From Raillietiella orientalis (taxonomy: Eukaryota), in the NCBI GenBank assembly GCA_036172245.1, contig JAYWIR010000007.1:2232001-2296000 (forward strand): a stretch of 64,000 nt of DNA, written 5' to 3'. Positions within the stretch are counted from its first letter, which is position 1; each line of letters starts with the position of its first letter. Under the pieces are notes generated by a model, which searched no databases, had not been told where the DNA came from, and saw only the letters and a program-made list of their open reading frames with translations. A program made the position numbers and the translations under genes. Positions 11,101-55,255 of the stretch are shown here, in pieces.

Positions 11101-14100
11101 CAAAAGATCAACACATTTTGTTTGTTGATAGTCTGTTGAAAGGTCTGTTGTAACTTATGTATATATTACCAAGATTAGCATGGTTTGTTAGTTGCAAGTA
11201 CTTTGAAAGTTTTGGCTTATAAGTGAAAGCCCTTTTTACCAATGATTTTGTGAGACATTTTGATTCACCAGTATTATATAAAAAGCACAACAAACTAAAG
11301 TTAATTAGTATTCATATACTCATATGTTCAGAGTAATTGAATTTATCCAACATAACAGTATTGAAGAGACTTTTTTTTTTATGTATGATGCTGCAATATG
11401 ATACTTGATGAGTCTTATGTCATCCATCAATATTTCTAATCCAAAATCGACTCAGGTAGTTCTTAGGAATGTTTCTGATCTTAAACAGGACATTCCTGAG
11501 TCCTGCTTGCATAGTTCCGCAAGGAAACCTTTTTAGAGTAATGAAGCACTTCAAAAACATTGTACATGTATTTTGAATTGTTTATTTATTGAAATAACAA
11601 GAATGCTTTTGAAATACCAAATGAATTTGCAGGTGATTCTGAGCTTCTGGATGACAAATTGAATATCGCATTAAGTGATATAGGAAGTTCTCAATCATTT
11701 TTGGATGGTTTCGAGCAAAAGGACATTTCACGAGGTAAAAAATAAGTGAAGTCAAACAGTCAAACAAAACTTTGTTTTTATTTAGCTAGTAACCATGCAC
11801 TACTTGATCATTGTTATTCTGCTGGAGATAAAGCAAAAGTTGTTGCCTTAGATAAGGAAAACGTTGAAAATAAAAGCAAGGTGAATGTTTTGGTGTTTCA
11901 TCTTTATGCTTCACGTGTGAATGTATTTTTCAGAAGTCAGCTTGTTCTCCAGTGAGGCGTTTTTATAAACAAAATGATAAAACTGATGCAAGGGAAAATG
12001 AAGTACAGAAAGTGACCCATGACCAGCAGGTTATAAATAACGATGACTCCACATTTGTTCGTTCTCACGATATTAATTCTTCTCAAGGTATTGAATTTTG
12101 ACAAGCTCGATAATTGCAGTGCTAAACTTATGATTTAGAGTTTGTAATTTACAACTAATATTCTTTCTCGTGATAACTAATTCTTCTCAATATATTGAAT
12201 TTTCAGAAGTTTCATAATTGCAGTGTTGAACTAATGATTTAAGGGTGTGTATTTTTACAAATTAATATTTTAGGGTTTACATCTAACCAAGAAAAACAAT
12301 TAGCAACTGCAATAGAGCATAACCGAAATAAATGTAGAAAACGCATTGATAGTGATGTAAATTGCTTATCCTCTAATGAGTCATTAGACAAATCACTAAT
12401 TGCTGAGCAAAATGATGAAAAGGATTTGAGAATGAATAAAGTATTGAAAACTAATTTGAATTTTTTAATTGCAAATGATTTTTAGACAGAAAATGTATTT
12501 AATAATGTTAATGGAAATGCGGATATAATTGTGAATCCACCACCTTCCAAGAGAGGCAGAAAACCAAAGAAAAAAAATCTTCCAGATTTTTCTTTTAGCG
12601 ATGAGGAATCTAAAGATGAAAAAGTCGCGGATGATGATCCTAATAAATTATGGTGCATTTGTCGCAAGCCTCATAACAATAGGTAACAAGGATTTTTACT
12701 TTTCAGTCATGATCATCTGTTGTATTCTTTTGGGTAGGTTCATGATATGTTGTGACAGGTGTGAGGATTGGTTTCATGGCAACTGTGTTGGAGTATCTCG
12801 TTATATGGGTGAGCATTTGATTTTTGTAAAATTCACAGCATAATTGTGTGAAAAGGACAAAAATTAGAAGAAAGTGGTAGAGAATGGCATTGCCCTAATT
12901 GTCGTAAAAATGACAAACCAAACAATGAAAATCAACGTCAGTCCTGGTGCCGTGGTCGTCATAGAAAGTATGAAAATGTCAATAAACATGAGAACGATAA
13001 AAATTCCAGCAAAGCTTTGGTATGTATAAAAGATGAGAAAACTACGAAGATCGAAGAAGAAAATAAAAGTGATTCAAAAATAGTATGTATCACTCAGTTT
13101 TTGGTTAAACATGCATGCAATTGAACAATTAGGTAGCATGTATTCAACCTGGATGTGATATTTCTGCATTAGATGGATCAGTTTACTGTAGCGATAAGTG
13201 TATTGAGAATCATGTTAAGGATGCTATGCTTGCTTTGGGTGTGCAATGTAAAAATCAGAACAAAAATGTATGAACTTATTCTTGAGTATCATTTAATTGT
13301 ATGGTGATCAGAATTCTGGTGAAGGATCTATTCCTAATGTAGTAGTTTTTGAAAGAAAAACTGGACGAGTGTTGACAGGTGCAAATGCACCATCTTGGGA
13401 AACTTTGGAATTATGGATCAAGAAACACCCAACCTATGAGGTTATGAAACCTTCAACGCCTCCGGCTTCCAAATTTTATGGGTGAGAAAATATGTCTGTT
13501 AAATAATAAACGTGTCAAACCATTTGTGTAATAGATCATCTTCACAATTATCAAGAAAAAACAATAAAGCCTCCAAGTTTAAAAGAGTATCTTCAGATCC
13601 TTCTTCAGTAAATATCTTTGATTTCCAAAAGCTGACACCAGTACGTAGTGGTAAAACTAATTTGGACCAATCAAAAGGAAATATTAAAGAATTGACAGAA
13701 GCTGATACAGATGGCAGAAATGTGTTATCACAAGACAATATTATGAAATATTTTCAAGAAAAACCAAAGGAAAAAAAAGATTTAAAAGATGAAATGAAAT
13801 TTGTGAACAATTGTTCATTTGGGGAAGATAAATTCAAAGATCTTGCTTTTACCAATGTTAACAAAAAGACATTCAAGGAAGAGAAAGAGAAACGAAATTC
13901 TGAGCCATCTATTACATCATCAAATCAGGAGTCTTTGCGAGCAAGTGTGCGAAAAATTCTCAGAGATGTTCTCTGGTCACGCTGTAAGGACTGTAAACCT
14001 CCTTTACCCATTAGTGAAGACACTGTAAAAAAGATTGTGCGATGTATTGAGAATGAACTTTATCAGCTGTTTGGAGAAGTTAATAGTCGTTACAAAAGCA

Positions 14101-17100
14101 GATACAGGTATGGATGGGCTTTTAAATAGGTATTGGAATGGGTTATTGAATGGGTCAGGAGTTTGATATTTAATATGAAAGATGCAAAAAATCCTGGTTT
14201 ATTTCGTAAAGTTGTCATGAACGTAGTCACTCCTGATAGACTAGTTCGTATGACTCCAGATGAATTGGCCTCACAAGAATTGGCTGAGTGGAGAGAAAGA
14301 GAAACCAAACATGTAAGTTTAGATTCTGTTAGCTAATAAATTCAAGCAAATTGTTAGCAACTGGAGATGATCAGGAGGATGGAATTAGATAAACAAGAAA
14401 GGAAACATGTTTTCATTACAAAGACATCAAATGAAGAGCGCATTATTGAAGCTGATGATATGGGCACACTTTTAGATCGTGAGTACTGAATGGAACATGA
14501 AATTAGAGTTGGGTATTTTCAATAAGATGCAGAAAATTCAGATGTAGATGGTTTACTCTTGTCTGATACAACTTCACAGCACCTCAATCATTTGTTTGAT
14601 CTTAACTGTCAAGTTTGCACAAAGAAGGTGAAATGTATATTTTATTGCTGTTTGCTTGATGTGGATTGCCTATAGATGAATCTGAGTGAATTTGAAAGCA
14701 AATATGGTAGAAAACCTTTACTTGCTTCTGACAAAGAAAATGAGAATCGGTTTTCTGAAGACTCATTAACAGAAAAAAATCGTCTTGCACTGTTAAAAGA
14801 AGAAGAAGCCAAACTTGAAGCGAAATTGGGCCAGGTCATGAAAGAAATTCGCTTATACAATGGTGATGGTTCCGATGTGACCCCTCCTAATCCTGATGAA
14901 CCTTTAACTTGTTGGGAGGGCTTCATCCACTTGCCTGATGTAGTGAAATTTTCTCTAAAAGCACGAAAAGTGAGAAAGCAGAGTTAGAGATAGGACTGTG
15001 TAGACGGAAAATGTTTCTAGGTATCAGGGCCTTATGAATCAATCGAAAAGGAACTTCCCACTTCACTTGAAATTGTTGGACGGATTAATCCTGACAATGT
15101 GTGGGATTATGTTGCCAAAATGAAAAAAGCAGGAACAAAAGTAATTTACTTTGTGTTTGATAAAGCTAATTTCAATGTCAGCAGAGTTTAGTTGTTGTAC
15201 GCTTTCAACCAGCCCATGAAGAAGACAGACTACCATATATGTCACTTTACTCTCATCTTTCTTCCAAAAATCGTTTTGGTGTCATTGAGGCTTTCTCTGA
15301 TCAAATTAAAGACTTTTATGTATTTCCATTATCTAGTAATAGTCCTATACCAAATATATTGCTACCTTTGGATGGTCCAGCATTTGAAGACTCACGGCCT
15401 CATTTACTGCTTGGATTAATTTTGAAGCATAATAGAAAGAGAAGTAGAGTAGACAGTGAGTATGGCTTCCTTAGTTGTCAACCAGTGCTGTTTTTTAATT
15501 TCAGGTTCTCCAACAAGGAAACATTCAGCTGAACGCTACTCAGTTTCACATTCAGCATCAGTGCACTCTTACACTCCTCCTCTCTTGTTAGATGGAGATC
15601 ACTCACCTTACAGTCCTCCAGAAACTGATATGGGTATTGCATCAGGTAGTATGGAACAATGTCATTTTTTGATTTATAATTGGCTCAATATGTTTTTAGT
15701 ATAATTTTATATATTTCTTTGTGGCAAATGTATATTTCAAAAATCACTTATCAGATTTACTTTACATCACAGAAAAGGTCGTGCATTGACTTAATGTTGT
15801 TCCTGAACTGGCATGCATGCTTTTACTAGTAATATTTTTAATACACTTTTCAAGGTTTTTTTGAAATTGCATGTGTCAGTTAGTTACAAACCAGAGTTAT
15901 TTAAAATAAAAGATTCCTTGACTAATGTAATCAGTTCTTTACAATCAATTCTTTGACCATTTCTTCATTTGGCCTGATTTCTGATGATTTTTGTGCCATA
16001 TGATTTATTCATTTTTTTACACAAATATTATAAAGAATGGCGCTGTAAGTTTGCATAACCTCTCACATTTGTTGAATTCGTGTGATTCAAACCTGTGGTA
16101 ATCATAAACAGTAGTTTTGTTTGCTTGTAAATTTCTTTTAGCAGGGCAGAGTATGAGTAGATTCGTGTCTTTCCTCGATAACTTCTTAAATGTTTTATTA
16201 ATGATAATATCCCACTCATGGAAGTCGAGCCTAAGTAGTTGAAAGCTCCAGAAATCTCGTTGATAAAACATAAAGCACCCTTAATATTTGAAAAAAAAAT
16301 TTTGAAGTCTTATTTGTTGCAGATTATAAAAATTATGATGTTAGTTGGCATCTTGGATTTTGGTTGTGATTGGCAACTTTACATGCTGTGTTTTCCTTAT
16401 CAGCAGCAAGTTTTTCCCATTTAACACTTGATTGAGTATCTCGGAAAATCTATTGTTTGTGTGTACTTGTCATGTGCAATTAATGGCAACAGCCTCCATT
16501 AAGTATCTATTCGCTATCTCGCTTTCCCTCCAATTTCTTTCGCTCTTTTGTTTTTTTGTTTTTGTTTACCTTGTTAATAATTGATAATGTATTCTGTTTA
16601 AAATCATGAAATTAGAATATCATCATAAAGATTTAAGAGTACTTAACAAAAAATCAGTTCAAATCCAAGCAGCGATAAAGGCTGTTTACCCCCTGTCCTA
16701 CACCTTCTGTGACCTAAAATGAGTTGAATTAAGCTTTTTGTGAATACTTAAATTTGGAGCAAAACTTTAGGCTTTGTTTTGTGTTGTTTTTCCTCCATCT
16801 TCCCAAAATCATTGCAAAGTAAAATAATAATACTTAATGCAACTGTTTTGAATGCGACATTTCCACATTTTAGACAGTTGACACTTTTCTATTCTTAACT
16901 AGAAGTGAACTGTACAAGAGTATAGTTCTTGTATAGTCCACTTCTCCTTTCCCATTCACTCATGAATGCATTTCCAGTAATTTCTTTTGCCAGGTCGTGT
17001 ATCTATAGGATTTTCCATTATATTAATAGTATGCTTTTGATTGCATCTTGAATGAAGAAGGGAAGGTACTCCTAAATCGAAATTGCAGTTTCAATTGAAG

Positions 17101-19265: not shown

Positions 19266-22200
19266 CACCACATTTTGGTGCTTCCATTAAAGAACCACAA
19301 TCATGTTGAGAGAAATGATTGATATGCAATCTATCATGTGTAAAATATTCACATACTTGCTTGCATCTAAAACAATGGTTTTTGCTCCTAGATAATGTGT
19401 ATACGTTATCTGTCAGCTGTTATTGTGTTTCATATATTGTGTGTTCTTGCCCAAGTCTGTTTGAAGATTCTAATGCACTTAGAATGTATTGAGTACAAAT
19501 TGTAACTTATAGAATTTTCGTCATTACTTGACATTACGGTTCTTGCCAAGAAAAATATAACAATTTCTATTCACGAATTGTAAAGCAAACTGAATTCAAC
19601 TGCAGTATGCATGGAGCTAATGCAGTAGTGCATTGCAGTTTTAATATAAGGTTTCAGTCAAAGTATTACATGTACAAATATATACATATATGTATACCGG
19701 TTGTGCGTTGGTTGGCCAAGTTTACTTGTGCAGGGAATCAGTTCTGGTGGATTCTTTGAAGTTCTGAAACTTTGCTGGTGGTCTGAAACGTATTTTGCCT
19801 TAGCACCAGCTGTTTCGTTTCCAGCACTGTTATTGTGATTCCAATCATTCACAGCCTTGCCTTTCCTTAAATACACTTTTGGTGATTGATCGACTTTCAT
19901 TAATCACACTCACTCGCAGAATTGAATGTGCTGCTCCTCTAATCATCTATTTCAGTTTGAAGCTGGCCAAGCTACATGGTGCAATTGTGTTTCCTTTTGC
20001 ACGTGTCACTATCGCCGTTCTAAACTGATCGAACTGCATTTCCATCATTTTATGTGCAGAAGTGAAACCCTTTCTCACACGCGCACAGACACATTACCCA
20101 GTGCCGAGCTCATACGTTCGATGCGGGACGTGGGACGAAAAGCATGTGCCACCGAGTCCCCCCCCCCTTCCTGGTCCCCGGTTTGTTGACGTCACGAAGT
20201 ACGTTCACCGTGTTCGCGTGCGGCTTCAACGTACATATCACAGGAGTGGAGTGTGTGTGTACGTCGGGAGCACCTGCGGTTGCCGGAGTGACTGAACCGG
20301 ATCGAGATCCACCTCGTGTTGCAGCGTAGACGAGCAGTTCCCCGATTCATCCCGGAACTTCTCACGAAAGGGACCGTAATGCTAACGCACCAAGTTGCCG
20401 TCGACCCACTTTGCATGAAGAACGCGGCTGCTGCCCGGATCACGTGAGAAGTCCTGATCGGCTCGTACACCTCGAGACCAGCGAATGCGTGCGTGGCTCG
20501 GTGTGGTTCGCCCCAAGCAGCCTGCAGGTCACACGACACGATTGGTGCATGCGAGGGGCTGACGTGTTTCAGCCACCTAAGCAGAGGCGAAGAGTCTGCT
20601 TCGAGGATTGGCGGTTCCGCCTCGTGCCTTGCGTCTTCCACAAACAGAAGCAAAAACGGTGTTTGGGCTCCCGCTGCTGGCTGGGCGTGTTCCCCTGGCC
20701 AGTGACCGGGTGACCTCGCAGTCGGCGACGCACGATGGCTTTGCGGCGGTTCTCTCCGTGAACTCTGGAGCATCCAACAACCTCTGGAAGCCAGTACCGC
20801 CGATTATCGATTCGCACAGAACGGGAGATAAAAACTCTGGGATGTTTTGTTGCTGCTGCTGCGTGCCCTGGTCGGCATTCGCTTTGAGCATGAGTTGGCT
20901 GCTTCGCTTCCCGTTTTTTTTTTTTTTTTTTTTTTTTTTTCCCCTTCTCTTTGCGGTATTGAACTCTGCGAAGAGGGCGCGTCTTGGATTACCTCGGCAT
21001 GCTGTATAAAGTCCAAGTTTCCGAATGCTGCCACGCTACTTTAATAACAGTCCCATGCGGGCGTCCACAAATTAACCAGCCACCCAAACCACCTACTTGC
21101 CGCTACCTTGCCCGCAAGGGGCTTTTAGGATTTGTCCACGAGACGGGGGTTTCTGTGTGAATGTCAGCAGCAGACTGACCGCTAATGACTGACTGAACAT
21201 CAGAAATGTTTCCTCGTTTGCAGGGAATCTCAAACGAAATTCTCATGCGAATCGCTGGTTAATTTTCCCACTTGGAATTGGCCAAATTGTTCCCTTGGAA
21301 GTAAACCAAAACTCGGGATTTTAAAGGAGGAAGGCGAGTGGGAGGAGTTGCAGATGTGAAGTGAATCGTATTCCCCACACTTCGCCAGTCGTCATTGCTA
21401 CGCATAAAGTTCCTCTACGTCTGTTTTCTGATATTTGTTTCTCCGTGTTTCAACTTGGGGTCGAGCTGGAAAATGCTTCGAAGACCATCCAGTGACCAAA
21501 TGAAGACATGCAAACAATAAATGCGCTGTTTGATTTTTTTTTTTTTGGCAAAACCTTAGTTCCTCGACGTTCAACATCCAGTGTCTGTGCGTCTCTGATG
21601 GCACTCTTGAATGCCATTTGGATCAGCGTGCCTCTGTCTGCGTGAGAGACAGCAAGGTGTACCAGATCGCCCCAGAAAGCAGATTCGAAAAGCATCCAAG
21701 AAAGAGAAAAAATCAGCTTGGTTCTTACAGGATACAGTTCTCATACAGCTAGGTTACCATTGGAGCAGCTTTGTTCTGGAAACCAGTGCTCCATTGACTG
21801 TTTCCAGTTATGCCATAAAATTGTGGCACCATTCTCTTATTTTACTTTGGGCATCCTTATTATTATCCCAGCCTGGAAACAAACTGGAAGATTGGAAGAG
21901 TCTCTACAGTTTGTCTTCATGTCAATGAATGAAAAAAAGTGAAACAGACTGTTTTAAAATAATTTGATGCAAATTCTATCTGCATTTCACTTCATGTACG
22001 TATGAAAAGAAAAAAAAAAAACATACGTGAAGTTTGGAGTAAATCGCTGTTGGGAATTCGTAAGGAATACGAATGCTTCAGCGATGCTTCTCGGTAGCTG
22101 CTATGTAAAGTTATCGGATCAACCATAATTCCAACCATCCCTTCCTACCTGGGAGGCAACCAAATGAGATGTCTGCTGTAACGAAAGCGGTGCATTTTTT

Positions 22201-29614: not shown

Positions 29615-31491
29615 TTACAATGCCGATGCTCCTGAGATGATCTCAATCAATTCTCGTGTGATCACTGCTTGACGTGTTCTATTGAAAGTAAGGGTAAGCT
29701 TGGCAATCATATCTCCTGAAATGTTTTTTTCAGTTACATTGTAAATCTGCATTACATGAAAACCAAATGCAAACCTGCATTTTTGCTAGCACTATCCATT
29801 GCTGTCATGCGAGAGGACTGCTCACTACAGGCTGACTCTTTAAGTACATAAAAGAGGAGAGAAGCCAACAAATATTCTTGATATGATTTCAGGACATCAT
29901 CATCCAGACTATCATAAATAGGAAACTTTTCACAATTTGAGAAAGCATTCATGCTATAGATTGGAAGCTTTTTGGTGTTGTATGAAACTACAGACCTAAA
30001 TGCAGAATAAGTACTCATTTCAACAATGCTGAACTACCTGAATTCATTGTAATACAATTTCCCACTTTCAAATTCATACCCAGAGTTCATAATTTCCTGG
30101 GCTATAGATACGGCATCTTTGAAAGTTGTGGGTTTTTTACCCACATCACTGATGCAAAACAGAATATTTTGAGGGAATAACCTAAAATACACAGGTTATT
30201 ACATACTCGCCATAGTAAAGAAAATACCGAGATAAGATGAGACGTGACTTGTCTCCAATACAAATTAATTTTGTATTTTCTATGTTTGGTGCAATATCCA
30301 CTTTGACAGCCTTTGCTATAGATGAATGTACTCCTCCACATAAACCTCGATCAGATGTAACAGCTACCAATAGTTGATACATTTTGTCAAGTTCTGGTCT
30401 TGAAATCTCAGCTCTTTCATAAAATGCCTAACAACAAAATCCACTCTTTTTAAACACTTGCAAACCAATAATGAAATGTAATATGAAATGAAAGGACCAA
30501 AATAAAATGAAACAGGTTTCTGCATATAGATATATCATTAGGATCACTCAAATTACAAAATATAAATATGATACGCACTTATAAAAATCACAGTGGTCTG
30601 ACCATAACATTGAAACTAATAGTTACAAAGAATGGCAGAGAAACTAATCTGAGAGTTCTTTCAAGACAAATGTTTCTCCTCTCAGCAGAAGCAGAAAACT
30701 GACATTTTTTTTCTTCTTACAGATAAAAACTTTGAATGAAATGTTTTAAAATAACATACAAACCTGGGCACCTACACCATAAGAACGTGCTGGCTTTAAC
30801 TCCTTTTCTGCCCTTGCATATTTGGCTGCTGATACCATTTTCATTGACTGTGTTATTTTCTGAATGTTTTTCACTGACCTAAGTCTCATAGATATATCTT
30901 TTAACGTTGCCATTCCACGATACTGCTGCACAGCTATATGCAAGGTGCTAAATAAATGAAAACACATCATGTAGAAATACATTTACTCATGGCTGTAATG
31001 CAGATCATGAGCATCACATCACAAGTTCATGATTTTATATTGTATGTTCTAATACTGCAGTAGAAGTAAATAATTTGAACCATCATCCTCAATATTGTCT
31101 TTGATTGGGGAATCAAGACTTAGTCTGTATTCTTAGGAATAGTCATTAGAAACAACTGGTTCTTAAAATCAAACTGCCTACAGCCTAGATCTGAATTATT
31201 ATCAAAAAACTCAAGTAGAAAACAGTCTTTTCAAAAGCATGGATGCTGCTTATCCAAGAAATTCAATATAAATGCTATGCTGAACTCCAAACATCAATAA
31301 GATCCTCAAAGAAAAAATTTTGGCTTTAATTTTCAAGTGAGAAATATCAAGACACATGAAAGAAAGAAAAAATTGTGACATAAGGAAACTAATGCTGTTA
31401 ATGAATTGTTGATTTATTTTCACAATTTTATTAAAATGAAGTGGCATGAAACCTTATGGTCTTACAAAACAGTTGTTGGGAATCCTAACAT
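29615..31491 (-). CDS. ATP5F1C: Mitochondrial ATP synthase F1 gamma subunit (6 coding exons; first exon tentative)
   Basis: [99 protein letters not shown]. Stop at 29615-29617. Short introns at 30182-30227 (46 nt) and 29996-30037 (42 nt). Exon 1 (31491-31466, MLGFPTTV) was chosen on phase fit and a GTAAGA donor. Confidence 0.95.
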
Positions 31492-34400: not shown

Positions 34401-35426
34401 ATCCCAATGGTAACTCTCCTTTGCATCACTCCTGGAACCTGGAAGAAACTCTGCAACCCTTGCTGAAGATTTCCGCCCTTGGTTTTTGTACCCATAATGA
34501 ATGCAGTGAGCGCTAAGTGGAAACGAGCAACCAGGAATGAATGTGTGTGAAGTGTCCATGAGACATCCCGGCACTCACGAAGTGCACCGCACTTCTGAAA
34601 AAAGGTTCTGATCCTGGAAACACTTGTGTCTGAGGACAGTTGGACGGCAAATTACACACCAGCACCAAGCACGTCCAGATTTGCCTATTCCGAACCAGCC
34701 CTTTGTGGCCTGTGAGTGCAAAGGAAGGAGAAGTGGGCTTCAGTGCAATAAAGTGTGTAATTATGCACTGTGTTGTATCTAAATGAGTCATTTTTTTTCC
34801 CGAACACATTCATACGAAATATTTCGAGAATTGGCGGAAGAAACGCGAGTTGCAGACGACTGTTTGGGCATACTCATATGGTCCACTCACTGATGGACTC
34901 CGAAGTAATGAATGATTGTTTTTCTGGAAAAAGCAGCAACTACCAAGCAGCTGCTCTCGTTATAAAAGAAGGTTCTCTTGTAAAATACTATTAGTCCAAT
35001 CACAGTTATATGGATATATACAATATCTTGTAAGCTACTCTCTTGAATAATGTCTTCTAAGAAAGAATAATCTATCATGCTATATGTTTGCGTGTTCTGC
35101 GGCACCTGGACTCGGATTAATGTTTTAGAATTTAAACTGACCCTCGAGTATTGTCTAAGCATTAGTAGTTTAAATTTTCACTGCTAAAGTCGAATGCTTC
35201 AGTAATGTACTCTACATGGTGCTCATTATGGGTAGTCCTCTTCCGGTCAAAATTAAGGTATGTGGGCATGATGTAAAAGTGGGATCGGATTTTTTTTCCC
35301 GTTTATGTGGACATATCGGAAATCGAAAGGTCAAGAAACTTGCGTCATAATAATAATAAAGCGGTAACTGGAAGTCGTACAAATCTGAGCGTACCTGTTT
35401 CTCACTCGTCCTGGTACACCGCTGTT

Positions 35427-36977
35427 TCCCACCCGGGTGCGCTGGGGCGTTTATTTCTAAACTATCCGGGAACAGAGTTCCCGGACAAAGGACACAAAAA
35501 AACGAAGGGAGGGCTCCCCGACGCTTAGGTCGGTAAACGAAAGTCCGGAACGGGAGGGAGGGGACCACAGATACACATATAAAAAATATAAATAAAGATA
35601 CGAGGAGGGTAGGGGACAGGGGTCCTTGGCTTCGGCCGTTCCTTTGTTTCAGAACTGGCGTTACATACCAGAGATCTCGTTCTTTGCGTGTTCTGGAAGA
35701 TGAGATCAACCGGCAGCCGACGTCATGTTCTCGTCGGCTATTCCAGTGGCCTGTCGACGAATCGCCTGCGTCTCCAGCTCTCTGTAGGCCTTTTCGATGG
35801 CGCGGGTGCAACAGACAGTTGCGACCACCGCACCTAACGATAGGCCGCCTGGCGTGAAGAAGCGGCGCATCAAATCCCTTGCGGTGTCCCCCTGGAGCAG
35901 AAGAGCTGAGGCCAGCCTCCGCCACAGTCCTTGCAGTCCAAAAGCAGGTGCGGGAGTGTTTCTGCTTCTCCGCACCTTTTGCAGTTTGAGGAGACACCTC
36001 TCTCGGAAACAAGGTTCGTGCGCTGGTTGCAATGGAAACCCCAATGCACCAGCATGATAACGTCTTGTTTCGAAGAAAGGGGGAACACTGCAGTGTTCAT
36101 GCATGAGGGAGGGACCACAAGTTCTTCGGGGAGCACATTCAAGAGTTCGCTCCACCGAAGGAGTCCCTTCGGGATGTCGTTAGGCGTGGAGGCGTCTGCC
36201 AGACTGCTAATCCTCCAGCCGCCCATGGGTCGGGTTGCTTCAGCGATAGTGCAGGCGACCTCCCGCCTTGCCGGTGGGCAACTGTCGTCACTTGCCCTGA
36301 GGGCCGACAGCGCTTCGGCGAGGAGCGTGACGGCCAGGCAAGTCCACTTTTCCTGGTTCTGCATCACCTCCTCCACTGTACAGTAAGGAGAAAGGTTCGC
36401 GCAAAGGAGTTCCAAACGAGACACATCCTGTTGCCTTGCCCAGGCATGCAACGGCTCCTGCCGCTAGACGTTAAAGTTCGTTGGGCGGCAGGAGATCCAT
36501 GCGTGGGTTACCAGGAGCCGGTAAAGAGGTTTCAAGGGGAAACCGAAGCTTCTCGTGGCGCGCTCCGTATGTGGACGGAGCGACAGAAGTCCTTCGCTGC
36601 CGGTGCAGCGCCGCAGTAGCAGGCGCGCGGGAGCACACCACGAGTGGGCCAAAGGTTGGCGCGAAGGGCCAACATCCGAAACTGCACCTGCAGTTCGATC
36701 CTCTCCAACGTCAGGATCCCAAGCCGGCATCCCGACGCGGAGCTGCCAAGTCTTTGAGGCGGATCCTGGACCTCGCGGATCCCCACAAAGCGTTTCTCAA
36801 GAGGCGTCTCTCCTGAAGCTTGGCCTAGTAGGGGGGCGGGCAAACAAAAAACAGGGGGCGGAAGAGGGGGGCAACGAATGTTCCAGACGGAGACCCGCTC
36901 CGGCAGGATGAACCTGCCAAGGTGGAACGGGCTTAGAGCACTCGCAGCCTTCCGAAGGTAGTCCGACCACGCTTCCA
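35427..36977 (-). mobile_element. 5'-truncated L1/Tx1-like non-LTR retrotransposon (RT thumb to CCHC + 3' UTR) with TSD
   Basis: Frameshifted minus peptides WSDYLRKA..LPERVSVWN, RLGILTLE and CKRCGEAETLPHLLLDC (CCHC). Minus-strand AATAAA at 35450-35455. Direct repeat CTGGTACACC(G/A)CTGTT at 35411-35426 and 36978-36993. Confidence 0.88.
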
Positions 36978-37150
36978 CTGGTACACCACTGTTGTGGCTT
37001 AACCCAGACTTCATCAGTCACCGACGTGATTCAAACCCATGAATAGATAAACCAAACTTGGCGAAATACAGACCAGAAAGAAAGGTTGGAGAATGTAAAC
37101 AATCTTTTAATGATGAATTGTTCATCACTAATGACTGCAGAAGTGAAAGA

Positions 37151-37189
37151 ATCGCTTCTCCGCCTTTTGGATAAGATCAAAGTGTGTAT
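37151..37189 (+). pseudogene. U2: U2 snRNA 5' fragment (about nt 1-40), 3'-truncated
   Basis: ATCGCTTCTCCGCCTTTTGGATAAGATCAAAGTGT-GTAT versus invertebrate U2 ATCGCTTCTCGGCCTTTTGGCTAAGATCAAAGTGTAGTAT: 2 substitutions and 1 deletion. It starts at U2 nt 1 and homology stops after the branch-point recognition sequence. Confidence 0.9.
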
Positions 37190-37824
37190 GTGAGAAAAAA
37201 AATTAAAAATCACACTTTTTAAAGAAAAGAAAAAAAATGGAAATCCTTCTTTTCTGTCTTCGCAGTTCTTTGAGACTGTTCCACGCCACCTGAGGGTGGG
37301 TGATTCTTCAAGATAGGGGGTACCCCGGGAGGGATCCGCCCTATGAATCCAGGAAGGACTCGGACTGCTGTTCCTCTCACTCCTGGGGAGGGATCCCCGG
37401 AAATGGAGATCACCTCCACTTTGGTTGTCTCCGAAGGGGAATCCAGAAGGGGACCTCCTTCCTTATTCTCTCCGGAAAGGGGTCCGTTCCATCCTACCTT
37501 CTCTGAAGGGAACCCGGAAAGGGTCCGACCCTGAAATTTATTCTCCGGAGGGATCCTCCGCAAGGGATCCGCCTCCGTTTTTACTCCTCTGAAGAGAACC
37601 CCGAAGGGACGCTTCCGAAATTCAGAAGGGTGCTGCTTCCCCGAAGGGATCGGCTCGCTTCTCTGAACTCTCTCTGGGGAAGTGGTGGCGACACACCTAC
37701 TCCATCAGTCCGATGCGGAGGGTCCTCCCTGGGATGGGGAGTCCGCTCCTTCACAACCGGAAGGGAGCTCCCACTCCGCGGTAGCTGCACGTGAGAAAAA
37801 AAATTAAAAATCATATTTTCTAAA
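37190..37824. repeat. ~600-bp GC-rich insert flanked by 23-bp perfect (about 35-bp imperfect) direct repeats
   Basis: GTGAGAAAAAAAATTAAAAATCA at 37190-37212 and 37791-37813. The interior contains many CCG(A/G)AGGGA-like repeats. Confidence 0.8.
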
Positions 37825-38899
37825 AAAAATAAAAATTTCAAAATGTAAGCCGCACCTATTGTTTGCTGAATTGCGAATACCATAAAAAACAAACAAACTA
37901 TGTGGATGGTACAAACATTTCCAGTGCTAAAGCATCAGAATATGAAGGTGCAAATCGAAAGGAAGGCCATGAAACAGTTGCTAGATGAACTTTACGGAGC
38001 CGTTATCTTCCCTCATTCTGTCGTCTGCAGAGTTGCAGCAGCCAAGAAGAGGAACTGCCTCGACCAACGCATGAGGTCGCACAACGAACGTGGGTCGCTG
38101 GTCTTTTTTTTTTTTTTTTTTTTTTTTTTAGGGTAGAACCCACGCTTTTTGATCAAGCCGTCGGCAGCCTTCCGAAGGCTGCATTTCTGGCGAGCGGTCA
38201 TGGGGAACCCAAATCGAAAGTGAGTGTTCCCTAAAATGGAAGAATGCTTCAAGCAAGTTTCCATTCCGGGAAAGTAAACCCTAGATCCGTAGGGTCCACA
38301 GACAATACGTTGACGACTTCCCCACGACGTTTTCTCGCACTGAGCGGAAAAAAGGATAAGACAAAGGCGTGGAAGGTGTATTCCCACGCCCTAGTCTCGT
38401 GGAAAGTACCGACCTTCCCTAATGACACGGAAAATGCAATTATTCACGTTTCGGTGAACTATGCTCGTCTACGATCACGTCGTCGCCATTATTAGCCATC
38501 GTCTTGAACACCTACGTGTACCCACGCACACGCATAAAAAGCAACCGTCAACATGGCTTGCACGAAATTGCCCTGCGATCCCTCTCCAGCTATATCATCC
38601 GAAGACGTTCCTCTGCCTCTTTGTGCATTAAAAAAATACGCACGAGTTACTGGAAAGTGCCACAAGCACGGATGCGAAGAGCAAAAGTAATCCCAACGAA
38701 TACCCTCTTTGAGGGATTACTGATGGAAACCGTTTTCAAGACGGATCGGCCTCGACATGTTAAAGCTGAATAAACTAATAACCGTTACATCAACTTTCCA
38801 GCTTTGTTCGCCAACGGAGTTTTGCAAGACTCAACATGAACAACATAGAGCAAGAGCCTGCTATCTCGTTTAATCAAAACGTTCAGCGTACTACATTTG

Positions 38900-39297: not shown

Positions 39298-39760
<463 letters not shown>

Positions 39761-42320
39761 ACATAAGTGCACAGATTTCCCTCCTCCCATTTGATCCACA
39801 ACATGAATGTGTAAATAAATTCGTTTTGCGATAGTGTAATTGAAACCAGCAAAACTTTGTGATGTCAGAAAAGCAAATGTGTACAGCAGTCCATGATCTC
39901 CCATTTTTTAATTGTTTTGGTGTTTTTCGTACGTAGGTTCTGACAAACATTTTTATTTTAAGATGGCATCGGATGCAATTGTGGCAACTATGTTAAATAT
40001 AGTACAAAAGCTTGGAAAATGATTGATGACAGCACTATTCTCATGGAGTAAATGTTGACCAACCGCGCGTTATTGTGTTAATAAATGTTCATTTTTCAAA
40101 CATGGCGTCTGATTTAAAATGGCGGTATTTTCAGACTTCGCCTTGGTGTGCTAAGCACGATGTTAATCGTTGCTAGCAGTGGGCAGCTCCATCGTCGCCG
40201 TTGCCAAGTGTTTTGCAGTCCGTGCGATTCTCTTCCTGGTGGTGCAGTTTCTCCACACGTTCCCCGTTTGCCTTTGTTTCCTTGCATGTGTGCGAGTCTG
40301 AACGGGGGCAGTCCCCCCTGGCAGGGGGGCACGCCGCCCACCTCCATCCATGTTTCCATCCTTTGTCCGTGGCATAGAGTCGCCTTCGTGGTTCGGGCTC
40401 TCCCCCTCGGAAAGTTTGCGGATGTGCACCATTTCCTTCTCGGTAGCCATGGGCGCGCTGTTGCAGTCGGGTCGCCCTTTGTTTTCCGTGTGCTTGGTTT
40501 CCATTTGTAGGTGCTTTGCCTTTTTCTTTTTTTTTTTTTATTTATTATTTTTCCATTCATGCGAATCGTTCGGTTTCTCCCGTGCTGGAGAGGAAAATGC
40601 GATTTCGCAATAGCTGCTGTTGACGCCGTTCCCCGTTTAAGGGGAAAGTCGGTTCGAAAGACAAAGGAACGGGGGAAAGCCTCAGCGGTCTTCGGTTGCC
40701 TGGCGAGGAGGAACCGGGTAGCGGCTTGCGGACCCCCGTGGGCCTGGCAAGGGGGTGGCGGGGTGGGGGTGGTGCGCGCCTGGCTGGCTGGCTGGCTGGG
40801 GATGCGCCCCTGGCGTGCTCGGGGACCGGTGGTGACCCGAGAGTGTCGCACGCCTGGTTCACCTTTTGTTCTTTCGCTGGCAGCCGACTTTCTTTGTGGT
40901 CGGCGTGAATTACACAAGCCGGGGCGATTGAATATCTCTGGAAGCAGCGCCTCGGAAAAAATGTGTGTGTTTTTCTTTTCTTTTGTGTGTGTGTGTCATC
41001 CGAGAAGAAAGCAGTAGGGTGTTTGGTGTGTTGGGGGAGTGGTGCAAGGCGTGCCTTCTGTTGTGGGGAAGTGCGACTTCCCGTCGGCTGCGTGTGCATG
41101 CCGCGGGGAATGGCTGCGGCATCTCGAAGCGCGCGCCCACCCCACAGACCCCCCAGAGATGCAGCTTTCTGCCTGCCGGCGGCGCGTGCGGGTGGTTCGT
41201 GAGTCTCCCTTGAAATCGGTCCTGGAGGAGAGGCACCTCGCCCGTGACGCATAGATAGGCTTCGAGCAGAATTACGGAGTCCGCTCTTGAGCGCCCAGCG
41301 GTTGTGAAACAGCCTCAGAGGTGTTGGGGTTACTGCCAAGCGTGTGGCAAACTTCGATATTCGTCCGAGCACGAGCACCTTGCTGCTGAAGAAGTGTGGT
41401 GCGCGTGACTGTTGGGTGTTCAGCCAGGTGTTCGGAAAAACACCCTGATGCATTGTGTCGGGACCACTGCGGAGCGCCCGGTGTCTCTCCAGCGACCAGG
41501 GCTGGGTGGTCGTGGCGTGGGGCGTCGGAAGTCGTCGTGAAGAGTGCGGAACAAATTTCCGTTTCCGTCTGTGGCATCGGTTTGTCATTGGCCCTTGCGG
41601 TCGCAACCACCGTAAACGCAGCGAGGAGAAAAAAGAAAGATGGCGAATCTTTCCTTGCTGCCTTCGGAGATGCCACGGTCCTCCGAGCCTTGCGTTGATA
41701 ACCGTCCGATTCACAAATGTTTATTATTTTGCAGTTGACGCGCGCCCTCCCCGTACGCGTGGGCGTTCTGGGGCCGGAATTTTGGGTCAGGGATACATCC
41801 TAAAATAATACGTGTACGCCGCGTACGATGCAATGACCGGCTGCTAGCCGAGGCACGTCGTCACAAAGGAAAGCGTCGGTGGCGAGGCGCGCGGTACTGT
41901 CCGCGGAGCGCAGTGGAAGTTGGCCGTGGCGTCGACTCCCCCGCAGGGCCAAGTGACGCTCTCTGCCGAGCATGGGTTGGGCAAGAAGAAGCGTCGGCGA
42001 AGGGGAACTTGGCCGGCCCAGCACGGCAGGGATAACAGGGGGGTCACTCGCCAGAAGGAGCCGCCCTGGGCGGACGCGTGCCGTTGCTGCTGTTTGGCGG
42101 CGGCCGGGCGGGAGGGGAGGGGGAGAGGGCGGCTGCAGGAAACCCTATAAAAGCCAGCGATGTTTGGAACTGTAGAGCTATTTATAACCCCGAATTTCAC
42201 GGGTTTGCAGCCATCCCAGGGGTCACGCCGCTCGCAGCCGTTTTTATTGTACGCGAAGTATATAATATATGTATATGAAGTTTCATCCCAGTAGTGGTGA
42301 GCATATCCTTTCGAGGGGCA

Positions 42321-42355
<35 letters not shown>

Positions 42356-45300
42356 AAAGGTATTTTGCTCGGTAGTCGAGATCCTTTCTGAAATTAAATC
42401 TTCCTAAAGGAAAGCACAGACGGTTTTCTGTTTCAATGCCCATTTACCTTCCTGTGTCTGTAGGACGCTTTCCGTACCACCTATGCATTGGGATCAGAGC
42501 TGTACACTGGGAGACTCGGCCACCGAGCAGGAAGGATTCCGTGCTTAAGCGCGCGCATACGCTGCCGTAATTGTGCTCTGTCCCGTCGTTGGGAGCAGCA
42601 AAAAACGTTCGTTGTCTTTCTAAACCGGCATGCTGTATGGGAGATCGTTGCATTTCTTCTCTTTTCTTTTCTTTTTTGTAAAAAAAAATGCGGTTTTGTG
42701 TTTATGGGCAACGTGTATGTCAATTTTCCGCTGGTAGGTGGTCGGATAAAGGGCTCGGGATGCTTTGGTATCCCTCACGTCCTGCAATGTATGGTGTCAT
42801 CATTCAAGTTAGATGTAAAAAAAACGGAACAATTTCGCGTGGGTCAGTCGCAGTTCCTCGTGTCTTTTACACATGTTGGCATTCAGTGGTTCCGTTTCCT
42901 GTGAGAATTCTGGATGCGCGCCCTCAGGCTTCGTGCTCTGCCAGGTTCCTCGGATGGTTTGCTCCGAAAGGTTTCAGGGTGCCTTTGCCGGAATTCTTCG
43001 TTCCTCCTTTACGTCCAGTGTCCCGTCCGGCTCCAGGTTTTCGCCTATGTTCTTGAACCATCCAAACTTGGGTCTCCGTGACCTGTCGGAAAACGGTGCA
43101 AAATTGACCCTGCAAATCGTGCAGCGCATGCTTTAAGATCTGCGGGCAGCATAAGCATAGATGCTGAGCCAGATCAGCGGGGTGCAGCTGTAGGTTTTGC
43201 ACTGCTGTCGCATGCTGAAAAAGCACGGGGTTTTCAGAAAACGGCCTTGCGCACACACATTGACCGAAATTTTGTCTCCACACGGCGTTTCAGTTACCAG
43301 AGGTCACAAACTGACCCGGTGCCTCGTTGGGCTCCGCGATAAACAAGGATGTAACTGCTGTTAACAAAAGCTGTGTGAGCTTCAGGTCGAAAGCACGACC
43401 TTCCTAAAAGATGGAGACTTACAAAGGTCCTCGAAGTTTATTTCGAAAGGAACTCTGCATTTGGTCCCTGCCTGTGAATATGTCGTGCTTTTCCGGCCAT
43501 CGCTGTATCTTATTTAGAAGAACCCCAGTTGCTCCAGAGTGCCGTGCTTGCATGAAACTGGTTTCTGACACCACAAACTGCGGACTTGCTTGCAGGGTGC
43601 TGGAAGAGGAGTAACCGAAATGCCGCTCGTGCCGTGGCAGTCGATTCATTCTGACGCGATGCGGCGACTAGCAAGCCTGCAAAACGGAGCAAAAAGAGAC
43701 CGTGGAGATGCTGGTTCTTTAATTCTTATGATCACGAGAAAGGATTGACTTGTTCGTAAATGGTGGGGAAACAGTTGTTGACCTCAAGTCTTCGGAATTC
43801 TTTGGAAAGAAAGGGTGAGGCTCGATTTTCCGAAGAGGAGCCGCCGAAATCTTCATTCAGGAAAATCAAGTTTTCCATAAGTATTCTCAGAAGAACATGG
43901 CGTGAGGACTAAGTACAGAGGTCTCTCTGCATCCGAGATCATTCAAATGAGCAGCAACGTCGCTGCTAGATTCAGTGTGTACCCGAAATGAGCGTTGCTC
44001 CTCTGTTCTGTTTCCAAACACTTGATGATTTGTGGAGTAAATTTTGCCTTCGTACGTCTTAACCGTGCCTTTCGAGTTATGTTCCCTGTTTTCCCTTTTC
44101 TTTGTGTGCATGTGTGCTTGATGTGGCGTTCGGCAGCATTTTTTTTTTTTTTTTTTAATTAATTCACTTGAGGTTGCGTGCAGTTTTTAGTTGCAGGAAC
44201 TGTTTCTTTGTTGACTTCACGTGTGACGAAAAAATAACCTATGGCTAGAGTTCCGTGAAAGGCCGTGTTTTTCACGGCAGTCCTCGTTACAAAGTGGCGA
44301 AGACGACGTGTGGAAGGCTTAGGAAACAGGCGAATCATCCCTAATCCAAAAGAACAATTTAGTTAGTAATCACCGTTTTTAATGTCGGCCCAGAGAACAT
44401 TCTCGACCACTGTAGCAATATGTAGCCCTAACTGTTCCTCAAAGTCTTCGCGCTGTGAAGTTGATGGCTTAGCACCATCCCCGCGCGCGCTTCTAACAAG
44501 ACACAAATTCCCATGAAATAAAACCAACGGTTTGTTCACAGTGATGGAAAAAAAACAAAAAAGAATTCCCTGGCAAGAACACGTTTGTGGACAACGAGAT
44601 TCAACAGCCACATGTGCCTCAGGTGCAACGAAAAGTAGTGTTCCAAAGCCCCGGATATATGCTAGGTCGTTTTGCCCAGTCTTGCAATGCAAAGACTTAT
44701 CTGAATCCCGGTAATCAGTTTAGTTTGTGCAGTTTCAGTTTCCTGATCTTGAGAGCGATCCTTCCTCCGGGATGTTTGCCTGTATGCTCTGAAATCTGCG
44801 CATGTCATCCTTCTTCTTCTTGTCATACCGTTATCATTTTGAATGCACCCTTCTCGGTACCGTGTTTTCTTCGCTCCCCGTTGCCCAGCTTTTGTTTTTG
44901 CTTTACGAGCTGTTGCTTCGGGTATCTTGTCTTCCTATGGAGTCTGTCCCAACACGTGGGCAGCAGCACATGTACCGACGACTGATAGTGCTGTAGAAGC
45001 AGTAGGCTGCTACAGTGCTGTCTGCTTGAAGTGTTCCCCGATATGTGTCGTCGTTCCTCGCAGGGCTCTCACCGTCAAAGTGTCGCATTTTCAACTCGCA
45101 TGTGAAACACTTCCGAGTCGCTTCTTTGAAGACTAGAATGATTGAGGAAATGGTTGCACACACACACAAAAAAAAAAACATGCATTAGGATGCACTGGAT
45201 TTCTATCGTACGTGCTTCCCGAATCGGTTGTTCGTTTGATCTTTTGGAGTACTCAAGCCGGGAAACGGTTCCTATGAAAGCCGATGCTCGTGCATGATGT

Positions 45301-46124: not shown

Positions 46125-49010
46125 TCAGCTGTTGGAATCCAGGACCAATGATTTACACATGTTTTCAGCAAGCTTTTTTGCCAAACGACCTTGTAAAACC
46201 AAAGAATTGGTTAAAATCAAAAGCCAATTCATTAGGTACCTTGTCTAGCACGTTGTTGTTTGAGTCTCTTGAATCGCATTTTCAACTGCCTTGCTGGATT
46301 CTGAACTGCACTCTGATGTTTGGTAGATGGCACAGGTTTCAATGTATCCTGTCCATGTGGTACATCAATCACAGTATTTACAGATAGCTATCAGAAAGAA
46401 TCACATAACACAAGAATAGCTTGTAGCATACTTGTGGTATGCTGCAGTCTGCAACACTCAATTTCTTGGGAATATTAACATGTCCTCCATTTTCCACATG
46501 TGATGAAGATAACTGTTGAAAATCGTGTACTTCTAATGTCTGAATTTGATTTAAATCAAATTCTGCCGACATATGCCGAACTAGTTGACTTTCCAAGTGT
46601 ACAGATTCAGTGCTTTCAGGTGGTTCAGTGTAATACTTGATTTTTCCACTGAAACAAAAAGCCCTACAACAAAAATAATTGTAAATCTTCATACCAGGTC
46701 CATTCATTGAGTAAGTGACGAGCTGCAGCCGTAATGTCAGGAATACCACCTTTTTTCAATTTTCCTAGGCGGCAGGCCAACAACTGTAGGAACTCTTGTG
46801 TGTTGGAATAATTTGATAAGCGATAATGTGCTAACAACTGCAAACTCATTAGCAGCTGCTTATAAACTGATACACTCTCGGTGATATATACCTGATTTTT
46901 ATTCGCTCTTTGTAAAATAGCCTCAACAGGCAAAACAGGATCCTCTATCTGTTCTATTCTGAAGGCATTTTTAAGTGCTGCAACAGCACAAGAAAGACCT
47001 GATGTGTTATTGTCCAAAATCAATCCTGGACAATCCAAAAGGCGAATGTGTTTGTCCAAGTGCACTGTTTGCATACAACTAAATTACGAAAAATAAAACA
47101 AAAAATATGAAGCATTACAAACCTGGTTGCTCCAGGATTGGAACTGATTTTGCAAACTCGCTCACGCTTCAAGCTGTTTATGAGACTACTTTTTCCCACA
47201 TTTGGATATCCTGGTATGAGTCTTACAATAACCAGAAAATCATACCTAGAGACAACTTACCAACTACGCCAACACTAACAAATGTTTTCAGGTTGTGTGT
47301 ACGGCAGTAATTGCTCAGCAGATTCATTAATGCTTCAGCACCCAAACAGCGGGAACTAGATAAAAGGCCTTCTGAGCTCTGTAAAACATCCTTTGCTCCT
47401 GCATGAGTGATCTTTTGATGTGTTGACGCAGTGCAACTCTTGAAAATAACTGTAGGGAATTCCAGCCTGAGGTATTTCAACCATTTTTCCAAAATATGTT
47501 TTGGTACTAAATCTGCTCTTACAGGATATGAATGTAGCATTCAATCATTCACATAAAATACGAACCTGCTTTATTTAATACCAGGATCAGTTTTTTGCAG
47601 CCACTTGTTTCCAAGATAGTTTTTTCCAATACCGAAGATCGTGAACCTAATGGGTCACGAGCATCCAACACTTCCAAAATAATATCTGCCTCATCAACTA
47701 CCTACAGTGCATGTGTGTGCATGTTTTTTTTTTAAAAAATCACATCAAGAGAAAAAACTCACTTTCTGAAACTCCTGATAAAACCTCTTAGCTGATTTAT
47801 CATTCAGTTGTGAGGAAGCCTTCAAATTCAAAGGACTTTGTTCTTTTTCATTCTTTTCGTACTCTTGAGCTCTACGATCAGCATCCTGTGTAAGACTCTA
47901 GAACAACAATCAATACTGTTAATAATAATCTCCATAGTTTTTTTATGCCCTTTTTTTTACCTCAAGTGTTCTTCTGGATGCAATCTCATTCTGCCGCTTG
48001 CTTTTTTGAATTTCCCTTAATTCTTTTTTTCTTAGTTCCTTTTTCCTTTCTTCTTCCTGTCTTCTGGTTCCTGCTTCTTGGAGAATTTCATTTTTGAATG
48101 GGCAAGAATTAGGTACTTTGAAGTGCAGTTTTTTTGATGCTAAACATATAAAACTTATTTTATACACTTTAACAAACAGCAATTTCTCAGATATACCCAC
48201 ATGCTCTAATCGACATTTCCACTGAATTCAATTTAAAACAAAAACAAAACACATGAATAATTGATTTATGAAAATAGTTCTAGTTATGAAGACTGAATTG
48301 ATTCCAATGTATTATTTCTTTTAAAAAACAAAAAAATGGCTTTCAAGAAATAACATTCTGAAATCAATCCAATTCCAAACTCATTGAAAATATATGTAGA
48401 CCTAAGTACATACCATTCATAAATGTGGAGACTAAATGTGATACACAATCTTTGGGGTTAACTGTTAACAAACACGGGAATCAAATAACTGATAATTGCT
48501 TGCACCACAAAGATGCAATTTCCAAATATTCTCAATTCATCTTATAATTTTATACACAAAACATTACAAATACTACCAAACAGCAATTGACATGCATTTA
48601 TAAACGTTAAAAAAAAGTAAAATGTATAAATTAACACCCACAATCATTTCCTATATTGATTACTGATACTGAAGCACTAAGCAGTACTTCAAACAGAGAT
48701 CAGCAGATAGGTTTGAAGTTTCATATGTTGAAATTTGTTAACCATAGCAGCCATTCGTTCAAAGGTATGCATTTGCTGTAACTTTTACCACTAAACTTAC
48801 GTTTATTTGCACGTTTTTTTGCTTCCTTACGAAGTTTTCTTCTGTGCTCCTTCACTTTTTTTTCAATTTTATATCTTTTCCCGGCAGGTAGTCTCTTGCT
48901 TTTCTTTTCTAAAATTAAGTTATTTCGATATGTACTTTCACTTGATGTTTCTGATCAATAACAAAATCCAAATTGCCATAACAAGGTGGCAACGTCACAT
49001 ACCGCTTCAT
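46125..49010 (-). CDS. GNL3: Nucleostemin / GNL3-like circularly permuted GTPase (start exon unresolved)
   Basis: [73 protein letters not shown] (G4), [20 protein letters not shown] (G1), LLDCPG (G3), [23 protein letters not shown]. Stop TGA at 46125-46127; AATAAA at 46092-46097. Confidence 0.94.
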
Positions 49011-53770: not shown

Positions 53771-54445
53771 CTATAAGCTGATTAATACTCGTTTAGAAAA
53801 AAAAAGGGGGGGGGGAGAAAAGGAATGCCCCTCTCCCATCATGCATGCAATTACCAAAAAAATGCGCGTGTTTCGTATTTTCCGGTTCTCCTGTACATAT
53901 TGCAACTGGACGGCAGAAAAAATTTAAAAATTCCACGTATTTGACCTTTTTCGAGTCCTTCTGGGAAGAATCGATTCGAACACGTTCAGTTTGAATACAA
54001 CAGCCGTAAACGAAAATACCATATATGGTAATCACATTTTCTGTATAATTTTTTGTATAGTCTCGTGCATGGATGCCAATGATTTCATATTTAAGCGGCC
54101 CCGACTCGTATTGCGGGCACGGCTTGCAATGAAAAATGCTTTCCTATTCGTTATTCTATATTGTAATGTTTTTTTTTTTTTTGTTCTGTAAGGAACCGAG
54201 TATTATCCCATCTCATATTGCTAAGCATCCTTGTCTTCCTCTTCAAACGTTAAACTAATTTTCAAGCCAAGTTTCATATTATTGATCTGATGATTAGCCG
54301 TCCAGTTGCAATATGTACAGGAGATCGGGAAAATACGAAACGCGTGCATTTTTTTTTTGTACTTGCTTGCATGACGGGGGGGGGGGGGGGATTCCTTTTC
54401 CTCCCCCCCTTCCCCCTTTTCAAACGAGTGTTAATTAGCTTATAG
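53771..54445. mobile_element. MITE / non-autonomous DNA transposon with ~145-bp terminal inverted repeats
   Basis: Left arm 53771-53914 (CTATAAGCTGATTAATACTCGTTT...CTCCTGTACATATTGCAACTGGACGGC) is the reverse complement, with scattered mismatches, of right arm 54297-54445 (GCCGTCCAGTTGCAATATGTACAGGAG...AAACGAGTGTTAATTAGCTTATAG). The ~380-bp interior is non-coding. Confidence 0.9.
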
Positions 54446-55255
54446 TAAAGAAAAAGGAAAGAAAGAAAGATGGAGCGTGTTGCTGTTCTTGAGCGCCCGC
54501 GTGGACAGTTCGAGGGCACGAGATGTGGTCCACCCGGATCTTCCCCCCCTCCCCCCCCCGTTGCCAGTGTGCGCGCAGACGTCACGGATGCCGAGTTCGC
54601 TGCGGCTGGAGGAGCAGCGGAGGGCAGCAACGTAAATACGGAAATCGCCTTCCTGGTGTTGCTGCGTGTCCTTCCTGTCACGGTGTCGTCGTTTTCTCCT
54701 CCTCCTCCTCCCCCCGGTGTGTCCGGAGACGCAAGGCACCACCAGGTGTACGTGTTCCGTGCTCGAGGTCGGTCACCCGCAGACTCACCATGTGGTGCAA
54801 AGGACCGAACGTAATGTTAAACGAGTGCTTTCGTGGCCAACAATGCCCACCGAAAGGAAAAAAAAGGACAGAGTGCACTCAGTCGGTTTGAGGCCCGGCC
54901 TTAAATGTCGTTTTCGGGAGAGAGAGAGGAAAAAAAAAAAAAAAATGGCAGGAAAAAGTTGTTTATATGTACGTCCATGAATGCAAGGGAATGATTCATT
55001 TGCTGTATCTGTTCCACGGTTAGCCCCCCAAAAGATTAACTCTATGAAATCTCTGAACCTCGAAATGTGATGTGTTTTAAAAATGTATTTCTCTTAACTT
55101 TCAATCAATTTTTGAAAAAAAGAAAAAGAAACTTTGAAATTCAATACGATTTTTTTAAAAAAAAATGTTCGTATGATGTTTATTTTGCAACAGATAATTT
55201 TTTAAACCCAAGTTTCGCTATCAGCCATCATAGTTCATTATGACAGTACATAGCA

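Follow-up and report, generated by a model that had tools for sequence, protein, structure and literature searches.

A decayed U2 snRNA 5' fragment followed by a GC-rich, non-coding segment between two copies of a 45-nt direct repeat

Results

A decayed 5' fragment of U2 snRNA is directly recognisable in the window, i.e. the whole 64-kb stretch of DNA that was analysed, and it is followed by a non-coding, internally repetitive core between two copies of a direct repeat. Our tentative interpretation, which we rate a little below an even chance, is that of an old and dead U2 snRNA pseudogene fragment (nt 1 to about 39) that was joined by a later duplicative insertion in AT-rich intergenic DNA. 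In a first step a 3'-truncated U2 copy would have been deposited; this would be either a tailless retrocopy made by a LINE or what is left of a U2 gene that was disrupted. In a second step a 556-bp GC-rich, non-coding and internally repetitive segment would have inserted just 3' of the U2 piece and duplicated about 45 bp of the A-rich target; it could be a piece of a mobile element that lacks a poly(A) tail, or filler DNA that was added when a break was repaired. We infer the order of the two events, the status of the repeat as a target duplication and the route by which the U2 piece arrived. No part of the locus is functional now. It is composed of the following features:

37151-37189 (+): decayed U2 snRNA 5' fragment, from cmscan with RF00004 and a pattern match
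37190-37234: direct repeat, copy 1, A-rich, 18% GC, starting with GTGAG
37235-37790 (+): GC-rich core, 556 bp, a non-coding motif array, from composition, motif and stop codons
37791-37835: direct repeat, copy 2, 12% GC, 40 of 45 nt identical to copy 1

Decayed U2 snRNA 5' fragment

The match of cmscan to RF00004 covered 37151-37309(+) with 33.4 bits and thus fell short of the gathering score, which is 46; its E-value was 1e-4 over a 1.2-kb stretch and 0.0055 over the whole 64-kb window. No RNA family reached its gathering score anywhere in the window. The alignment starts at nt 1 of U2, so that the claim of an earlier note on this DNA, a U2 homology from nt 1 to the branch-point region, was borne out. 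Model nt 1-34, the sole part aligned at high posterior probability, are certain. By eye, 37186-37189 match model nt 36-39, given that nt 35 is deleted, and 37190-37192 match nt 40-42 with one mismatch. The end of the homology lies in the range of nt 34-42; an end at nt 39 is plausible, and it can be no further than nt 42 (37192). A 31-nt pattern of the U2 head matched once in the window, with three mismatches, while none of 100 shuffles contained any match. The cmscan alignment has non-canonical stem-I pairs at 11-22 and 12-21, one insertion after nt 30 and one deletion (nt 35). Because two stem-I pairs are broken and two indels are present, we regard the fragment as dead.

An internally deleted full-length U2, as drawn from the end-to-end cmscan alignment, was rejected. 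The U2 head alone scored 20.4 bits in truncated mode, and 37191-37330 alone had no U2 match at E≤10. As the 3' part is without a match of its own, the end-to-end alignment is no evidence for an Sm site or 3' stem-loops. Other parts of U2 were detected neither in 36900-38100 (cmscan, E≤10) nor in the whole window (cmscan, E≤5), the head at 37151 being the only one.

Tailless, 3'-truncated snRNA retropseudogenes are a described class, known from human U1, U2 and U3 and flanked by target-site duplications (Van Arsdell et al. 1981, in the excerpted account of PMC4494074). The existence of this class, as excerpted there, counts for a pseudogene. Yet, no target-site duplication was recognisable around the U2 head, which counts against it: the best flank score was 4, while 30% of 5000 random sites scored at least 5, in a test where a short target duplication could vanish at roughly 10% decay.

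Genomic setting and a LINE relic

The window is gene-dense. The U2 fragment lies in AT-rich intergenic DNA with a LINE relic on one side and an H3.3 gene on the other:

12535-15529 (+): exons of a PHF3/DIDO-like gene (PHD, BRK, TFIIS_M, SPOC)
29755-30982 (-): exons of mitochondrial ATP synthase gamma
35427-36977 (-): LINE relic of the zf-RVT type, GC-rich, 1.55 kb, with ORF 35873-36463(-) and its CCHC/zf-RVT C-terminal domain
39304-39585 and 39632-39760 (+): histone H3.3, intact, two coding exons with a 46-nt GT...AG intron
47023-48954 (-): exons of a GNL3-like GTPase

The best identities of proteins from the window were to arthropod proteins (55% and 66-73%) in a database from which a protein of the same species was absent, and the genome appears arthropod-like from these sequences. 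The H3.3 start is 1.5 kb from the core. About 50 nt 5' of the H3.3 ATG, on the same strand, is an acceptor-like site (T-run ... TGCAG), which suggests that the gene may have a 5'-UTR intron.

The Pfam families of reverse transcriptases, endonucleases, RNases H and transposases were absent from all 411 stop-free ORFs scanned. These comprised 77 ORFs of at least 110 aa and, among the shorter ones, 61 between 45 and 109 aa at 34-39 kb and 273 between 60 and 109 aa in the rest of the window; Pfam may be short of a good RLE model, and the lower length limit of 45-60 aa passes over smaller decayed frames. The zf-RVT match in 35873-36463(-) was weak with E=0.0068 and not significant after multiple testing. 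Atlas neighbours of this ORF were found at 0.97, 0.96 and 0.96, and in clusters 1 and 3 zf-RVT was present on 29% and 65% of the members. No homologues of the LINE relic were found among longer proteins and no relatives in the PDB. The relic is enclosed by 16-nt direct repeats (35411-35426 and 36978-36993, 15 of 16 nt identical), which probably are its target-site duplication. An AATAAA precedes its 3' end by about 25 nt, and a poly(A) tail is missing. Relative to the U2 piece it is on the opposite strand, and neither flank is U2. Of the Utopia-like and Tx1-like remnants that the earlier note had placed in the window there remained this one zf-RVT-type relic, on the opposite strand and within its own repeat; an RLE-type remnant was not detected. 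As a GC-rich, repeat-bounded insertion without poly(A) in the neighbourhood, the relic counts for a pseudogene fragment with a later insertion.

Several other sequence features were seen in the window. Pure T runs of about 26 nt are present at 38104-38129, 20914-20940 and 42323-42349, the first being located between short inverted 7-mers; they may stem from the poly(A) tails of retrocopies on the minus strand, or may be no more than simple microsatellites. An exact 15-nt near-palindrome, GCAGCCTTCCGAAGG, occurs at 36944-36958 and 38164-38178, 1220 nt apart and one on each side of the U2 locus; one copy is inside the LINE relic and the other just right of the T run. Low-complexity, palindromic sequence at 1489-1644 gave sub-threshold microRNA matches on both strands (mir-297, mir-466, mir-5014 and others), far below gathering scores and almost certainly a simple-repeat artefact. 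Further islands with 55-61% GC compared to a background of about 33% are at 1-1000, 20000-21000, 40100-42300 and 54000-55000. The observed/expected ratio of CpG was about 1.0 at 1-1000, 20000-21000 and 40000-42400 versus 0.5-0.65 in the background. These islands had no Pfam matches and no mutual similarity, and are possibly decayed GC-rich mobile elements.

Direct repeat and GC-rich core

A gapped local alignment of the two repeat copies had 40 of 45 nt identical with a score of 65, while 300 block shuffles that preserved composition reached 32 at most. blastn reported 45 nt at 88.9% with E=2.4e-10. Without gaps the alignment extended to 50 nt at 86%, the extra 5 nt being on the left with an identity of 3/5. 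The initial 23 nt, opening with GTGAG in both copies, are exact. The earlier note had described flanking direct repeats of 23-35 bp, and this was confirmed with a repeat of 45 nt. A larger diverged duplication around the repeat was rejected as the gapped alignment ends at 45 nt. The left edge of copy 1 is within 0-5 nt of the end of U2 homology. The sequence of the repeat is not U2-derived, and its A-richness is that of neither a homopolymer nor a poly(A) tail. Copy 2 grades into AT-rich DNA with no compositional break, in the way that a duplicated piece of host DNA would. The copies differ at five positions (11%), and like the decayed state of the U2 head this indicates old age.

The GC content of 37241-37790 was 57.3%, compared to 18% in copy 1 of the repeat and 12% in copy 2, with an observed/expected ratio of 0.62 for CpG and 0.40 for GpC. 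The initial 45 nt or so of the core are AT-rich and close with a pyrimidine tract and CAG (37247-37265). The three + frames contain 4, 4 and 2 stops, and no Pfam family matched the core in any frame. A 156-aa open frame on the minus strand was equalled or exceeded in 165 of 1000 dinucleotide shuffles. The core is non-coding. Thus the GC-rich, repeat-bracketed segment of the earlier note stood, while the ORF1-like peptide that it was said to encode did not, given the stops in all + frames.

The core contains nine sites of a degenerate motif of about 10 nt, CCGGAAAGGG-like, on the + strand and none on the - strand, while the other 63 kb of the window have seven (+) and six (-). None of 1000 dinucleotide shuffles of the core reached nine sites, a count which is generous in that the motif was picked post hoc from the sequence. 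The core as a structured RNA was rejected with z-scores of -0.16 on the + strand and -1.50 on the - strand against dinucleotide shuffles. The core resembles neither the neighbouring LINE nor any other GC-rich island of the window, so that an origin as a copy of one of these was likewise rejected, and no second copy of the core was present within the window.

HMMER with the core peptide against 1.84 billion representatives produced one match (E=1e-5). It was to a bacterial protein with five near-identical repeats, each of which aligned at 28-32% identity, and was judged spurious. A metagenome scan found the peptide pattern in 255 stretches, of which one passed tblastn; this locus is part of a bacterial contig of high GC, where it overlaps unrelated genes or lies between them, and was judged spurious as well. 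Hence the window, the 1.84 billion representatives and the metagenome scan yielded no accepted relative of the core. That the core is unrelated to the rest of the window and shows no coding signal counts for a pseudogene with a later insertion, and the lack of an accepted source for it in these searches counts against.

In a different view the core would be a + strand upstream exon without coding sequence, or a region near a promoter, e.g. a 5'-UTR exon of H3.3, with the repeat as a duplicated exon/intron boundary and the U2 fragment as an unrelated neighbour. The GTGAG at the start of both repeat copies and the pyrimidine tract to CAG at 37247-37265 would fit this, as would the acceptor-like site on this strand, about 50 nt 5' of the H3.3 start codon, and a GC-richness like that of exons in a gene-dense window. 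However, splice-like strings as short as these will turn up by chance in A/T-rich DNA, comparable ones are present on the minus strand, and the 45-nt duplication is left unexplained. We consider an upstream exon very improbable.

Relation to U2-targeting retroelements

Utopia (NeSL clade, with an RLE) and Keno (Tx1 clade, with an APE) are elements that insert in U2 genes. In the excerpted text of PMC4640811, U2 downstream of Utopia insertions begins at nt 39, and the site 38|39 is common to Keno; the 3' boundaries are precise and the 5' ones variable, and U2 is at the 3' flank in 44 of 65 families. In the same excerpts arthropods are listed among the groups with Utopia, and arthropod families are stated to produce no target duplication. 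Tandem insertions are reported there as well. The earlier note had placed the cut in U2 at the Utopia/Keno position. This held up, in that with a homology end at nt 34-42 the U2 piece stops about 4 nt or less from 38|39.

The locus might be the relic of a U2 gene that was hit by a site-specific non-LTR element of the Utopia/Keno kind. U2 nt 1-38 would be the 5' half of the target and the 45-nt sequence the 3' tail of the element; copy 1 would represent an extremely 5'-truncated insertion and the core with copy 2 a second, tandem one, and the 3' half of U2 would have been lost later. The range of the homology end spans 38|39, and the repeat starts at the end of U2, as a junction of target and element would look. 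U2 nt 1-38 directly 5' of the insert, the arrangement of the arthropod type without target duplication, was found with an end blurred by one deletion and one mismatch. In addition, the proteins of the window are nearest to those of arthropods, a group listed with Utopia in the excerpted PMC4640811. An element of this kind accounts for both coincidences, the repeat edge at the U2 end and the U2 end near nt 38.

On the other hand, U2 from nt 39 onward at the 3' flank, which is what such insertions show most constantly, is missing directly after copy 2 and throughout the window (cmscan, 36900-38100 and window). A co-oriented element ORF (zinc fingers, RT, CCHC and RLE for Utopia; APE and RT for Keno) was not found on the + strand before H3.3, and none of the 411 ORFs is a + strand RT, RLE, APE or zinc-finger ORF. 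The LINE relic, the only one in the window, has the opposite orientation and its own repeat around it, and its 3' flank is not U2. Neither the window nor HMMER nor the metagenome scan revealed a further copy of the presumed element. The model thus requires an extra deletion of just the most constant feature and has no element to show, and we consider it rather unlikely. The proposal of the earlier note that the locus is the 5' junction of a U2-targeting element was upheld in part: the start at U2 nt 1, the end near the site and the repeat-bracketed block were found, but a U2 3' half in the window and a + strand ORF for RT, endonuclease or zinc fingers were not, the core is non-coding and the repeat is not U2.

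A bolder version, which we take to be quite unlikely, is that an undescribed retroelement specific for the U2 site, or a non-autonomous partner of it, left its footprint, now decayed, in an arthropod-like genome. The 3' end of this element would consist of the GC-rich CCGGAAAGGG-like array and the 45-nt A-rich tail, two 5'-truncated copies would have inserted in tandem at nt 38|39, and the downstream U2 half would have been lost later. If the core and the 45-nt tail form a genomic family that is regularly joined to U2 nt 38, it would be of modest importance as a new U2-targeting element or non-autonomous rider and an arthropod addition to Utopia and Keno. The present locus would then be an example of how a decayed 5' junction looks.

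Chimeric retrocopies and U2-headed SINEs

Chimeric retrocopies of snRNAs with LINEs or mRNAs arise by template switching (Buzdin 2002, Garcia-Perez 2007, as excerpted in PMC4494074), and in the chimeras described in those excerpts the snRNA is joined directly to a LINE, Alu or mRNA fragment. SINEs with a U1 or U2 head, SINEU, are reported there from crocodilians only. SINEU-3, which is present in thousands of copies with target duplications, has a 32-bp U2 head, a further (middle) U2 part of 83 bp and a poly(A) tail (excerpted PMC4494074).

By analogy the locus could be a chimeric retrocopy or a U2-headed, SINE-like member: a LINE RT would have copied an RNA ending in the core and the A-rich tail, jumped to the tail of a second copy and then to U2 snRNA, and copied this to nt 1. 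This would explain why the U2 part begins exactly at nt 1 and why all pieces are on one strand with an A-rich stretch at the 3' end, and there are precedents on record in the snRNA-headed chimeras and the SINEU families including SINEU-3 (excerpted PMC4494074). However, the composite has no visible target-site duplication, the comparison of 37150 with 37832-37840 around head and core giving a score of 4, which is chance level. There is no poly(A) tail at the locus, and the A-rich stretch is not one. U2 stops here at about nt 39, whereas the chimeras in the excerpts join the snRNA directly to LINE, Alu or mRNA. The sequence past the head is without a U2 match of its own, so that an internally deleted form like SINEU-3 is unsupported, and the window and the metagenome scan contained no second copy. 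We hold a retrocopy of this type to be decidedly improbable.

Weighing of the models

No model accounts for every feature. We rank a dead pseudogene fragment with a later insertion first, followed by a site-specific element, a chimeric or SINE-like retrocopy and finally an upstream non-coding exon. The first of these explains the missing U2 3' half in the window, the host-like composition of the repeat and the lack of element genes. A truncated U2 retropseudogene that was later hit at its end had been the other suggestion of the earlier note; it fits better than the 5' junction of an element, but a recognisable target-site duplication is lacking.

Further points count against the pseudogene with insertion. 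The left edge of the repeat at the end of U2 homology has to be a coincidence, and so has the end of U2 near the Utopia/Keno site; if truncation points were placed uniformly, about 5% of them would by our own estimate come within about 4 nt of that site. A target duplication of 45 bp is long for most LINEs. Yet, long target duplications occur in some elements, namely the RLE elements SLACS and CZAR in the spliced-leader genes of trypanosomes and Penelope-like elements. Thus a duplication of 45 bp is unusual, not unprecedented. As it stands, the locus is of little importance, being one more dead, intergenic snRNA fragment of a known kind.

Comparison with known systems

The locus shares with Utopia and Keno insertions a U2 5' part that ends about 4 nt from 38|39 and is followed at once by foreign sequence. 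It differs from them in that a U2 3' half, an RT or endonuclease ORF on that strand and copies in the window are absent, and in that the repeat is not U2-derived.

Like tailless snRNA retropseudogenes, it starts at nt 1, is truncated at the 3' end, dead and away from any snRNA gene. In contrast, these retropseudogenes carry target-site duplications in the excerpted literature, while none is recognisable here, and the endpoint at this locus falls at a known retroelement target site.

The further 83 bp of U2, the poly(A), the target duplications and the many copies of SINEU-3 were not seen here, within the scope of the window. What the two have in common is a short U2 5' head with unrelated sequence and an A-rich end. 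Template-switch chimeras differ from the locus with its U2 part of about 39 nt, a 3' partner that is no recognisable LINE or mRNA, and neither poly(A) nor target duplication; they share with it an snRNA at the 5' end of a composite on one strand.
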